A stretch of 64,000 nucleotides of DNA, taken from Candidatus Poriferihabitans sp. GTDB lineage: Bacteria > Pseudomonadota > Gammaproteobacteria > Arenicellales > Poriferihabitantaceae. The notes under the pieces are model-generated. The model had not been told where the DNA came from. It saw only the letters and a list, made by a program, of their open reading frames with translations, and did no database searches. A program made the position numbers and the translations under genes. This document shows positions 16,970-18,247 of the stretch, piece by piece. Each line of letters begins with the position of its first letter. Position 1 is the first letter of the stretch. The stretch is from the NCBI GenBank assembly GCA_965220975.1, contig OZ244855.1, forward strand, positions 2,384,967-2,448,966, read 5' to 3'.

Positions 16970-18196
16970 ATGCCAACAAACAGAATTTTGACGGCATTCC
17001 CATTGATCGGAATGCTTACCCTTACGGGATGCGGGGGCGGTTCTGTCGGTATTGACAACCCTGATCCGGCGAATCAAGCCGGGCCGCAGGAAGCCGCTGT
17101 TTCCTGGTCAAGGACATACCACCAGGGCATTGGTCATGAAGCCCGTAGCGACTACCGGCAAGCGATGCATGACTATTGTATCGAAATGGATCGTGCGCCT
17201 TGCTCCGTATCTGGCCGTGGCTGGTTTTCTTCCTGGAACCGGTTGCCCGAAGTGCATGTTTCCTCAAGCAGCACGCAGCAGGAAGTAGGGGCAATCCGGC
17301 GGGCACTCGGCATTCTCAACCGATCCCTTCCCGAGCAATACCGACTCGGCTATCAGACAACCCGCCGAACCTTTTCCGGCGTGCACAGAGATAATCAGTT
17401 CGAGCTTGCCGAGTCTCTGATACCCGAAGGCGTGATCCATGCCGAGATTTATCCTTATGACGATCCGGAGTCCAGTGGAGTAGCGTGGACGGATGGCACA
17501 AGGGGTTATGCCCTTGGCGATGAGACTGACCATGACCTTTCCACTCCACATTACATGAGGTCTGTGATTGATACCCTGGTGCACGAATTCCTGCATGCGC
17601 TTGGATTTGGGGGACATCCGCACCCGGTTCACACGTCCATCCTGTCCTATCGCCACCACCGGGAAGGAGAGCTGGATAACGTGCCGCTGATTGACGTGTC
17701 GATGCTGTACGACCTGCATGAATGGGGTTCCTGGGATACCGGCATGAAGATGGTAGCGGATCATGCGGGCGGGGTGCATTTCGGGGTAGACAGCCTGCAT
17801 CGGGAGACAGTCTTCATTCCGTGGGTCGATGCCAAACACATAGCAGCTCCGAGACTGAATGAGCTGTCCGGCAGGGCATCGTACAGCGGTAGCCTGGTCG
17901 GATATGCTGCCGCCGAACCCGTGCTGGGTGTTGCCGACCTGAGCATTGACTTCAATGGAGGAACGGGAGAGGCCCGGTTTCACCGAATTTATGACTGGAA
18001 GGGCAAGTGGTGGAACCGAAACGGCTATCGCTACGATCTCGGCCTGCATGGTCACTACTTCGATTCGTCCAGCGATGCACGGGATCGGGACGGCATCCCG
18101 GATGTGGTCGGGGCCTTCTACGGATTTGAGGCGGAAACCGCCGCCGGCACGCTCCAGCGAGCGGAGATTACCGCTGCATTCGGCGCGGTCAAGTAA
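16970..18196 (+). CDS. lipoprotein zinc metalloprotease (HExxHxxGxxH) with TbpB-like C-terminal domain, copy 1
   Basis: I chose the start at MPTNRILTAFPLIGMLTLTGC (lipobox), because the track start at 16949 lies inside the terminator hairpin. The metzincin-type motif is HEFLHALGFGGH. The C-terminus reads ASYSGSLVGYA...LSIDFNGG...VVGAFYG...ITAAFGAVK. Confidence 0.75.
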   Translation: MPTNRILTAFPLIGMLTLTGCGGGSVGIDNPDPANQAGPQEAAVSWSRTYHQGIGHEARSDYRQAMHDYCIEMDRAPCSVSGRGWFSSWNRLPEVHVSSSSTQQEVGAIRRALGILNRSLPEQYRLGYQTTRRTFSGVHRDNQFELAESLIPEGVIHAEIYPYDDPESSGVAWTDGTRGYALGDETDHDLSTPHYMRSVIDTLVHEFLHALGFGGHPHPVHTSILSYRHHREGELDNVPLIDVSMLYDLHEWGSWDTGMKMVADHAGGVHFGVDSLHRETVFIPWVDAKHIAAPRLNELSGRASYSGSLVGYAAAEPVLGVADLSIDFNGGTGEARFHRIYDWKGKWWNRNGYRYDLGLHGHYFDSSSDARDRDGIPDVVGAFYGFEAETAAGTLQRAEITAAFGAVK

Positions 18197-18217
18197 GCGC
18201 CGAGTCTGATTAGCGCA

Positions 18218-18247
18218 CAAAAAACCGGGGCTTTTTGCGCCCCGGTT
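18218..18247. terminator. bidirectional terminator between the convergent cassettes a and b
   Basis: The sequence is AAAAAACCGGGGCtttttgcGCCCCGGTT, with an A-run on one side and a T-run on the other. Confidence 0.65.

Follow-up and report, generated by a model that had tools for sequence, protein, structure and literature searches.

Paralogous lipoproteins of a probable sponge symbiont join a predicted metzincin-like protease domain to a TbpB-type barrel and share a gene-converted 3' end

Here, we describe two paralogous genes, metz1 and metz2, in a 64,000-nucleotide stretch of bacterial DNA (the window). Their products are likely to be outer membrane lipoproteins in which a tethered zinc endopeptidase of the metzincin fold is joined to an export barrel, and the 3' ends of the two genes have been homogenised by gene conversion. 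The combination of an MMP-like zinc-protease domain with a barrel of the TbpB/fHbp type is an undescribed pairing. On the evidence of structural models and by analogy with known cargo, metz1 and metz2 probably specify an uncharacterised, surface-displayed metalloprotease and a new variant of the surface-lipoprotein architecture. A first-pass annotation of the window had called a protease with an SLP-type barrel unusual, and the publications on SLPs and Slam consulted here report no protease-type cargo, with the NalP autotransporter as the sole protease among the surface lipoproteins that they describe. Moreover, a functional name was absent from every member of the family that we found.

Table 1. 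Positions in the window of metz1, metz2 and associated features
Feature	Position	Strand	Basis or remark
Cassette a upstream genes	14508-16920	+	Porin_4 porin 14508-15437 and 484-aa lipoprotein 15466-16920
Hairpin AACCGGGGC-GAAAT-GCCCCGGTT, then T-run	16937-16959		Between SLP-a and metz1
metz1 CDS	16970-18196	+	ORF list; upstream alternative ATG 16949 sets residue numbering 1-415
metz1 lipoprotein signal peptide	16970-17032	+	Ends at lipobox L-T-G-C, Cys28 codon 17030-17032; read from sequence
metz1 low-complexity tether, residues 29-57	17033-17119	+	Predicted disordered; pLDDT <50 at 15-50 and 54-59
Metzincin-like catalytic domain, residues 58-262	17120-17734	+	AF2 domain model, Foldseek
Putative zinc motif HEFLHALGFGGH, residues 212-223	17582-17617	+	Conservation
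Gene-conversion tract, arm 1	17585-18196	+	17585-18153 a perfect match to arm 2
S-I-L-S-Y, residues 230-234, candidate Met-turn equivalent and Tyr	17636-17650	+	Conservation
β "handle" and 8-stranded TbpB/fHbp/NHBA-type barrel, residues 263-415	17735-18193	+	Foldseek
Hairpin, same family as 16937-16959	18223-18247		Between convergent metz1 and SLP-b, the latter at 18259-19872
Hairpin, same family as 16937-16959	41255-41279		Between convergent SLP-e and metz2, the former at 38767-41238
metz2 CDS	41306-42544	-	GTG start, 412 aa, lipobox L-S-G-C; P0001
Gene-conversion tract, arm 2	41306-41917	-	41349-41917 a perfect match to arm 1
Variant hairpin CCGGGG-cataacaa-CCCCGG and T-run	42611-42634	-	Upstream of metz2; read from sequence
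SLP 3' end relic (...GTFEAEYGNDEATMVGAFGADTRSFRLR*)	42634-42725	-	Between lipoprotein f2 and metz2
Cassette f upstream genes	42799-46937	-	Porin 45858-46937, 713-aa lipoprotein 43688-45829, 263-aa f2 42799-43590

The two lipoprotein genes named in the first-pass annotation are both present as open reading frames, each with a lipobox and the motif HEFLHALGFGGH (Table 1). The lipobox reads LTGC in metz1 and LSGC in metz2 and is followed by a Gly/Ser-rich tether; its cysteine is nearly invariant in the family alignment, and the tether has the highest dN anywhere in the gene. Public gene calls place the start of metz1 at 16949, which gives a protein of 415 aa. That ATG sits inside the loop of a terminator-like hairpin, however, and the start at 16970 is therefore more likely. 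A second assembly of the strain calls metz2 identically. Each metz gene closes a porin-lipoprotein cassette, from which a terminator-like hairpin separates it: metz1 follows the lipoprotein gene of cassette a by 28 to 49 nt, and metz2 comes last in cassette f. The hairpin between metz1 and SLP-b is a candidate bidirectional terminator. As a separate observation, an lgt gene lies in the window at 4597-5388.

The protease domain was modelled apart from the rest of the protein for Foldseek because the barrel dominated the results obtained with the full-length model. Modelled alone by AF2 (pLDDT 82.6, pTM 0.85), the domain runs from an N-terminal helix through β-α-β-α-β-β-β to the active-site helix, which a loop connects to the C-terminal helix. 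Strands are predicted at residues 101-105, 135-138, 162-168, 177-181 and 185-191 and helices at 110-124, 147-157, 200-217 and 247-256. The order of these elements agrees with the five-stranded sheet with one antiparallel edge strand, and the backing, active-site and C-terminal helices, of the metzincin fold. Nearly all of the top 50 Foldseek matches were metzincin catalytic domains (probability up to 1.0, TM(target) 0.5-0.56, with modest E values of about 1e-3), and the top matches in the PDB were MMP-12, MMP-1, karilysin, MMP-8, snapalysin and archaemetzincin.

Relatives in sequence are remote. No Pfam or NCBIfam protease model matched metz1 or metz2 directly (no protease-family match at an E value of 0.1 or below), and phmmer against PDB sequences returned no match. 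The best PDB sequence-profile match was an adamalysin, at a marginal E of 0.02-0.03 and aligned over the edge strand and HExxHxxG. The gathering thresholds of Peptidase_M10 and DUF2927, which metz1 and metz2 do not reach, are reached by remote relatives only: among 71 distant relatives gathered with a protease-only profile, there were 10 matches to Peptidase_M10, 5 to SprT-like, 3 to DUF2927 and 1 to Astacin. When aligned by hhalign to the DUF2927-bearing relatives, the metz proteins scored 97.9% (E 3.5e-13) over about 49 columns around the active site. The relation of the metz proteins to Peptidase_M10 and DUF2927 is one of superfamily level. The structural matches, the DUF2927-type alignment and the M10 matches in distant relatives all favor the zincin- or metzincin-like protease domain proposed in the first-pass annotation. 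Both domains of the protein have dN/dS values of 0.1-0.3, about 0.2 in the catalytic domain, indicative of purifying selection.

The putative active-site residues are conserved. In an alignment of 32 homologues H212, E213, H216, G219, H223 and P224 are invariant, and the spacing H-x3-H-x6-H is invariant in the 71 distant relatives. H212, H216 and H223 are putative zinc ligands and E213 is a putative catalytic base. The zinc-protease motif noticed at first pass is present and invariant, but it departs from the canonical form in that the third histidine comes one residue later (HExxHxxGxxxH rather than HExxHxxGxxH) and the "Met-turn" position holds Leu. Leu occupies this position in metz1, metz2 and most homologues; Met takes its place in the SIMSY of P0004, P0006, P0007, P0008 and P0012 and also occurs in L015, and the consensus of the wider set at the turn is SxM. 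S233 and Y234 are likewise invariant in the 32 homologues. The products of metz1 and metz2 are candidate zinc-dependent proteases.

How the metz domain stands to known metzincins is best seen family by family. Peptidase_M10 (the MMPs and karilysin) and snapalysin are the closest structures, with the same β-α-β-α-β-β-β-α topology and HExxHxxG on the active-site helix, and distant members of the metz family score above the M10 threshold. Unlike M10 and snapalysin, metz proteins have the later third histidine (HExxHxxGxxGH), the Leu at the Met-turn and just 10 residues from the third histidine to the S-I-(L/M)-S-Y loop; unlike M10, they have neither a cysteine-switch prodomain nor a direct Pfam match. 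DUF2927 (PF11150) has in common with them an extended core, HE(L/M)xHAxG(F/L)xGHPH followed by S(V/I)LSY and then LYD, but DUF2927 proteins (Rhodospirillales, Ferrovibrio) carry Sel1 repeats where metz has the barrel. A literature search on DUF2927 found no paper, and what ties this uncharacterised family to the metzincins is the variant motif, HExxHxxGxxGH followed by a turn that holds either Leu or Met. Finally, the astacins and serralysins (M12A, M10B) resemble metz in an S-x-M-x-Y type of turn and a conserved Tyr after the zinc motif, and weak Astacin matches occur among metz relatives. The glutamate-containing HExxHxxGFxHE of these families is absent from metz proteins, as are their N-terminal and calcium-repeat domains, and the metz spacer is far shorter.

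The C-terminal domain is TbpB-like, as the first-pass annotation had it. An AlphaFold model of the C-terminal 150 aa matched NHBA, fHbp, TbpB, LbpB, hemophilin and PmSLP with a Foldseek probability of 1.0, and the match to NHBA (6cuj) had an E of 4.6e-8 and a TM(target) of 0.70-0.74. The 8-stranded barrel is apparent in the fold of the model, and its sequence matches are sub-threshold, both to TbpB_B_D (E 0.05, 14.6 bits against a cut-off of 26) and to the NCBIfam model slam_lipo (E 3e-4, 21 bits against a cut-off of 80). The first-pass annotation had also equated the barrel with that of the SLPs nearby. A pattern of strand motifs is indeed common to both, but phmmer and hhalign found no significant similarity to the six neighbouring lipoproteins (phmmer E of at least 0.01, hhalign probability of 4%), and on sequence the two barrels cannot be equated.

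All SLPs predicted to depend on Slam have an 8-stranded barrel (PMC5449769). The metz proteins resemble Slam/TXISS lipoproteins (TbpB, LbpB, HpuA, fHbp, NHBA and PmSLP, and the soluble hemophilin/HphA) in their lipobox and flexible tether and in the published layout of a variable N-terminal effector followed by a C-terminal handle and 8-stranded barrel as export module. They differ in that the effector has an enzyme fold, that of a metzincin, rather than a ligand-binding handle or clamp, and in that their neighbours are Porin_4 porins, with no adjacent gene for Slam or a TonB-dependent receptor. To our knowledge, every characterised lipoprotein with a TbpB-type barrel binds a ligand, whether transferrin, lactoferrin, haem, factor H, heparin or factor I. 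With a metzincin as effector, the export architecture of the TbpB barrel would extend to enzymes, and one could readily ask whether the barrel by itself suffices as a transferable signal for display on the surface. A cognate Slam (DUF560) translocon is usually encoded close to its cargo, but neither the scanned ORFs of the window nor the precomputed Pfam lists for 10 related loci contained one. A Slam gene could lie elsewhere in the genome, and the metz proteins could also face the periplasm. A TPR protein encoded at 5435-6988 was considered as a Slam and rejected, as its TPRs are C-terminal and it has no DUF560 match.

How metz1 and metz2 might act is suggested by analogy with Slam/TXISS cargo, in the characterised examples of which the N-terminal part is the effector and the C-terminal barrel the export-targeting module. 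The proteins would be made with a Sec/Lsp signal peptide ending at the lipobox Cys, followed by a disordered tether of about 30 aa and a compact metzincin-fold domain of about 200 aa, in which H212, H216 and H223 would bind zinc and E213 would serve as the base. The S-I-L-S-Y loop could provide both the hydrophobic base and, like its counterpart in astacins and serralysins, a Tyr. After lipidation, the protein may travel to the outer membrane and be flipped onto the cell surface, and there its protease domain, held by the tether, would cut extracellular proteins. The likeliest substrates would be host matrix or surface proteins, with the co-encoded surface lipoproteins as the alternative.

The metz family is rare, with 86 clusters among 1.84 billion representatives. 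Wherever the origin of a member is known, it is a sponge-associated MAG or a sponge metagenome: the MAGs that carry homologues are labelled Arenicellales, Alphaproteobacteria, Ca. Poriferihabitaceae and Nitrospinota, and a further homologue lies on a metagenome contig from Aplysina aerophoba. The bacterium that encodes metz1 and metz2 is probably a sponge symbiont, a gammaproteobacterium with Arenicellales MAGs as its closest named relatives. Because the family is very rare, functionally unnamed and found in sponge-associated bacteria of several phyla, it is a candidate host-interaction factor, with matrix or receptor proteins as its presumed targets, in a symbiosis that ranks among the oldest between animals and microbes. 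We speculate, tentatively, that metz represents a family of MMP-like surface proteases exchanged across phyla in sponge microbiomes and the first enzymatic cargo of a TbpB barrel, maybe exported without an adjacent Slam and perhaps with the co-encoded porins as partners, and that it serves in remodelling of or feeding on the host matrix or in evasion of recognition.

Alternatively, the enzyme might act mainly on the bacterium's own surface proteins, as a sheddase that clips the long, disordered tethers of the co-encoded, porin-associated lipoproteins for release or maturation, and not be aimed at host proteins. In this lineage the gene ends porin-lipoprotein cassettes, and the neighbouring cassette lipoproteins have long low-complexity N-terminal regions that could be cut. 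There is also a precedent in Neisseria, where other surface proteins are processed by NalP in its lipidated form (PMC7857515). NalP would be a functional analogue of metz, a lipid-anchored surface protease that acts on surface proteins, but it is a subtilisin-like autotransporter (type V secretion) that is unrelated in fold and export. Genomic context makes a sheddase somewhat unlikely, however: only two of the six cassettes in the window bear a metz gene, and the orthologues in Alphaproteobacteria and Ca. Poriferihabitaceae are solitary among housekeeping genes, with no cassette nearby, which makes the association with porin cassettes a lineage-specific one.

The metz proteins might instead be no surface proteases at all, the metzincin domain being a non-catalytic binding module or the lipoprotein facing the periplasm. 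The shifted third histidine and the Leu at the Met-turn position would fit a loss of catalysis, as would the degenerate HExxH in one lobe of the bilobed relatives P0055 and P0057; the loop expected to close the active site (226-240) has an AF2 pLDDT below 50, and the failure to find a Slam gene nearby would fit a periplasmic location. Nevertheless, we consider this reading unlikely. The putative ligands and base, together with S233 and Y234, are invariant as described above, and dN/dS is about 0.1-0.2 around the motif. Moreover, in the relative P0059 the +1 motif lies within an above-threshold match to Peptidase_M10, and the other lobe has the canonical HEILHTLGRSH. Finally, the only known carriers of this type of barrel are cargo proteins that are secreted or exposed at the surface.

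The two genes differ sharply in how far they have diverged along their length. In the pairwise nucleotide alignment, metz1 and metz2 share about 83% identity as far as codon 212, at 62-92% per 50 nt across 17056-17584, and dS is 0.64 in codons 58-212, in keeping with the diverged N-terminal halves of the first-pass description. From GAATTC (17585-17590 in metz1, 41912-41917 in metz2) to the stop codons, only two sites differ in 612 nt, 18154 CTC/CTT (Leu) and 18184 GGC/GGT (Gly), both of them synonymous. The first 569 nt of the block, 17585-18153, are 100% identical, dS falls to 0-0.018, and the proteins are identical over residues 213-415 (203 aa), as the first-pass annotation had reported. 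Past the stop codons, scattered differences resume. A repeat search places the block within a larger inverted repeat, I2 (17201-18247 and 41255-42301; 1047 nt, 94% identical), the arms of which are 23,007 nt apart.

Such identity between metz1 and metz2 is not due to chance. Among 35 further pairs of metz paralogues or orthologues, no identical run exceeded 157 nt, and the paralogues of a related genome, P0002 and P0003, are just about 85% identical across the same block. The flanks of the block remain copy-specific, and the 60 nt after the metz1 stop are identical at 59 positions to the region downstream of P0003. Informative sites are clustered, a sign of mosaicism, and equally few runs occurred in none of 20,000 shuffles. 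At 17863-18108 the block resembles P0002, the metz2 orthologue, over 34 consecutive informative sites, although P0003 is itself mosaic there. We conclude that the 3' 612 nt were homogenised by recent non-crossover gene conversion and not by inversion. The tract, between inverted copies, runs from the codon of the putative catalytic Glu to the stop, and the 5' halves are older mosaics built by many shorter exchanges among paralogues. Gene conversion by itself is an ordinary event, and among paralogous surface-protein genes it is a general phenomenon. The sharp identity tract between diverged paralogues and the mosaic 5' regions are like those cases; metz is unlike them in having two expressed copies only, with no evident silent-cassette donors or dedicated recombinase. 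The event documents ongoing concerted evolution within a highly recombinogenic surface-protein region and is the lesser part of what makes these genes significant.

The first-pass annotation had also proposed that the block is a substrate for RecA-mediated inversion, and the repeat could indeed mediate inversion of the intervening 23 kb, as 612 nt inverted at 99.7% identity is ample for homologous recombination. The inverted configuration, however, was not found: both of the independent assemblies compared have the segment in the same orientation, and adjacency in the related genome is conserved, with a metz1-type gene beside SLP-b and a metz2-type gene beside SLP-e. That the repeat is a functional switch, in which recurrent inversion reshuffles expression of cassettes b-e or of both protease genes, is very unlikely. 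Cassette order differs between this genome and the related one, and therefore rearrangements do occur in the region, but no invertase gene adjoins the arms, and inversion would alter neither protein nor promoter linkage because the exchanged 3' ends are identical. Least probable is that assembly or polishing created the identical block, or that it stems from a very recent duplication of part of the gene rather than from conversion. Consensus polishing can homogenise repeats, but both genes recur in the second assembly, which comes from a different sample and matches without a difference over 21 kb around metz1 and at 99.98% around metz2, the two synonymous differences persist in the block between copy-specific flanks, and single long reads easily span 0.6 kb. 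The inverted repeat nonetheless calls for careful handling in assembly and comparative analyses. The two "defence islands" that the first-pass annotation had placed between the arms matched candidate defence models.

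The genes metz1 and metz2 encode lipoproteins of the TbpB-type surface architecture with a predicted metzincin as effector. The ORF listing bore out both genes proposed in the first-pass annotation, and both proteins open with a lipoprotein signal (lipobox LTGC in metz1, with the Cys codon at 17030-17032, and LSGC in metz2) and contain HEFLHALGFGGH. For metz1, position 16970 is probably a better start than the first ATG, because ATG 16949 falls within the loop of a hairpin, AACCGGGGC-GAAAT-GCCCCGGTT, that is followed by a T-run. Modelled by itself (pLDDT 82.6, pTM 0.85), the N-terminal domain runs beta-alpha-beta-alpha-beta-beta-beta, then an active-site helix bearing HExxH and, after a loop, a C-terminal helix; strands and helices in this order make up the metzincin topology. 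Nearly all of its best 50 PDB matches are metzincin catalytic domains, among them MMP-12, MMP-1, karilysin, MMP-8, snapalysin, and archaemetzincin (probability up to 1.0, TM(target) 0.5-0.56, E about 1e-3). The fold is backed by three sequence links, which together with it uphold the earlier metzincin-like call. The best PDB profile match, at E 0.02-0.03, is a snake-venom adamalysin, and the alignment spans the edge strand plus HExxHxxG. Remote relatives from Rhodospirillales and Ferrovibrio, which exceed the Pfam DUF2927 threshold and have Sel1 repeats, also carry the core HExxHAxGxxGHPH...S(V/I)LSY...LYD, and hhalign joined the metz family to the DUF2927-bearing relatives at 97.9% (E 3.5e-13, 49 columns). 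Finally, Peptidase_M10 was matched by 10 of 71 distant relatives, alongside SprT-like (5), DUF2927 (3), Astacin (1), and TbpB_B_D (7). Direct family scans of the metz proteins gave no protease match, and barrel matches below threshold only (Pfam TbpB_B_D, E 0.05; NCBIfam slam_lipo, E 3e-4).

The predicted zinc site departs from the textbook metzincin HEXXHXXGXXH in that the third His lies one residue further on. Moreover, the presumed Met-turn residue, in S-I-L-S-Y at residues 230 to 234 (numbered from ATG 16949), is Leu in metz1 and metz2, whereas several homologues and the wider consensus have Met; model confidence is low for the loop that carries it. Invariant across the 32-homologue alignment are H212, E213, H216, G219, H223, P224, S233, and Y234, plus the cysteines C77 and C85. 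In a full-length AlphaFold2 model built from that alignment (pLDDT 74, pTM 0.73), residues 263 to 415, approximately, match the NHBA barrel (E 4.6e-8, TM 0.70-0.74) and also fHbp, TbpB, LbpB, hemophilin, and the Slam-dependent PmSLP (probability 1.0 each). The barrel had been described as shared with the neighboring surface-lipoprotein-like (SLP) genes; a strand-motif pattern is indeed common to them, but significant sequence similarity was not found. Protease domain and barrel alike have dN/dS of 0.1-0.3, and therefore both are under purifying selection.

The family is rare. A profile of the protease domain only, searched against 1.84 billion representatives, matched only 86 clusters, of which 17 reached E <= 1e-10 and 10 reached E <= 1e-30. 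The consensus of the distant relatives leads from a lipobox through HELxHALGxxGH and SxM to a barrel ending in DLTAAFG. Three relatives of 870-930 aa (P0055, P0057, and P0059) consist of two tandem protease-barrel units, echoing the two lobes of TbpB. P0059 has the canonical HEILHTLGRSH (HExxHxxGxxH) in one lobe and the +1 variant in the other, and P0055 and P0057 each have one pseudo-protease lobe, its site degenerate and lacking HExxH. No family member found bears a functional name, our literature search found no mention of DUF2927, and the SLP/Slam literature searched described binding-type cargo only, the autotransporter NalP being the sole lipidated surface protease mentioned. Thus, the pairing of this architecture with a metzincin effector is new. 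We favor host matrix or surface proteins as what the predicted protease would act on, and the main alternative is a NalP-like role on co-encoded lipoproteins.

Pairwise alignment of the two loci agreed with the earlier description in every coordinate and number. Identity is 62-92% per 50-nt block over 17056-17584, and then, from a GAATTC that forms the left edge in both genes, an unbroken identical run extends for 569 nt (17585-18153 versus 41917-41349). Only two differences, at 18154 and 18184 and both synonymous, precede the stop codon, beyond which divergence sets in again; residues 213 to 415 are identical. By repeat search, the two loci form an inverted repeat of 1,047 nt whose arms are 94% identical and stand 23,007 nt apart. 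Synonymous divergence is 0.64 over codons 58 to 212 and drops to 0-0.018 from codon 213 onward. A related 3.2-Mb genome with both paralogues, ERZ25070844, served as comparison: its P0003 has signal peptide, neighbors, and downstream DNA in common with metz1, and its P0002 with metz2. Over the block identical in the window, P0002 and P0003 are only about 85% identical (dS 0.28-0.36). Past the metz1 stop, 59 of 60 nt match the region downstream of P0003, and such unexchanged flanks make this a non-crossover tract. The 3' identity arose by gene conversion, as first proposed, and not by inversion, the tract running from the catalytic Glu codon roughly to the stop codon. The longest identical run in 35 other pairs of family genes is 157 nt. 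The 5' halves are older mosaics: sites at which a window gene agrees with P0002 alone or P0003 alone are strongly clustered, and 0 of 20,000 shuffles had as few runs. The conversion is a clean but ordinary case of concerted evolution.

The repeat had also been proposed as an inversion substrate. Its length suffices for recombination, but no inverted form of the 23-kb segment was seen: a second assembly of the strain from another sample was 99.98-100% identical with orientation unchanged, and the adjacencies metz1/SLP-b and metz2/SLP-e are common to the window and the related genome. Because the exchanged ends are identical, inversion would change neither protein. A second, longer inversion substrate is a pair of near-identical, inverted IS256-family (Transposase_mut) copies that brackets 17.8 kb including lgt, aprBA, cassettes a and b, and metz1; the copies are 100% identical over 1,400 nt by repeat search, with 6 mismatches by blastn of the twin assembly. 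A 0.62-kb inverted repeat (98-100% identical) covers a 123-aa ORF (11324-11695, minus strand) of unassigned function and adjoins a stretch at 12-14 kb of low GC (0.42) and few long ORFs.

Coordinates of genes, repeats, and intergenic features in the window
Feature	Position	Strand	Remark
metz1	16949/16970-18196	+	cassette a, gene 3
metz2	41306-42544	-	cassette f, gene 4
Cassettes a-f	14508-46937	alternating	porin gene, then lipoprotein gene with conserved signal-peptide DNA
Intergenic hairpins	16937-16959, 18223-18247, 31855-31880, 41255-41279, 43599-43623		exact stem matches
Variant hairpin	42611-42634		upstream of metz2
SLP 3'-end relic	42634-42725	-	ends ...GTFEAEYGNDEATMVGAFGADTRSFRLR*; between lipoprotein f2 and metz2; no upstream ORF
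Candidate defence loci	23453-27524, 35585-36801, 48552-50967, 55236-56477, 57946-61262		among or beside cassettes
IS256-family copies	2674-4073, 21858-23257		inverted
0.62-kb repeat	11161-11784, 21083-21727		inverted

The metz genes lie among six cassettes between 14.5 and 46.9 kb, each with a Porin_4 porin and a lipoprotein. It is unusual for surface-lipoprotein-like genes to have general porins as partners in place of Slam or TonB-dependent receptors, and the pairs may form an uptake module. Neither a gene for Slam, the DUF560 translocon that exports surface lipoproteins, nor one for a TonB-dependent receptor was found in the window or in the sequence flanking 10 related loci. Between metz1 and metz2 are cassettes b-e, an IS256-family transposase, and two islands whose predicted defence role was matched by candidate models: one holds an NsnB-like AAA_21 ATPase, an E1-like ThiF protein, and small ORFs, and the other is PDC-M04 A/B (DUF3800; E 2.6e-85 and 6.7e-54). 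Further candidate loci comprise a PDC-M28B-like ParA/CbiA ATPase with an MqsA-like HTH protein, two PDC-S01 genes (AAA_14 plus DUF4143), and a PD-T4-4_A-like ATPase.

The neighborhood of metz1 and metz2 is clearly recombinogenic. The hairpin stem occurs in 5 exact copies against 0 expected from shuffles; the hairpins flank cassette genes, with a family member on both sides of each metz gene. They look like terminators or REP-like elements, and their common sequence could seed recombination. The SLP 3'-end relic was left behind by a past deletion or recombination event. Elsewhere in the region, the cassettes follow another order than in the related genome, consistent with inversions that had breakpoints inside cassettes. 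We note that at loci L001 and L003 the related genome's ThiF island and cassette c abut the SLP-f/metz2 unit. GC3 is 0.62-0.64 in the metz genes, 0.60-0.67 in porins b, d, e, and f, and 0.40-0.48 in the housekeeping genes tyrS, lgt, aprAB, and ruvAB; the high values are compatible with codon bias linked to expression, GC-biased gene conversion, or a foreign origin.

Among named genomes, Arenicellales MAGs are the closest, and other homologues are labeled Alphaproteobacteria, Ca. Poriferihabitaceae, Boseongicola, Bryobacterales, Nitrospinota, and Dehalococcoidia. One lies on a metagenome contig of the sponge Aplysina aerophoba (MKWU01), and Ca. Poriferihabitaceae featured in a sponge genome note, suggesting that the family is enriched in sponge microbiomes. 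In the Alphaproteobacteria and Ca. Poriferihabitaceae MAGs, the homologue is solitary among housekeeping genes. An Arenicellales MAG (OZ241374.1, 2.89-2.99 Mb) has five copies (L005-L009) in a stretch of about 100 kb, not all in one orientation, and L009 appears frameshifted or truncated.
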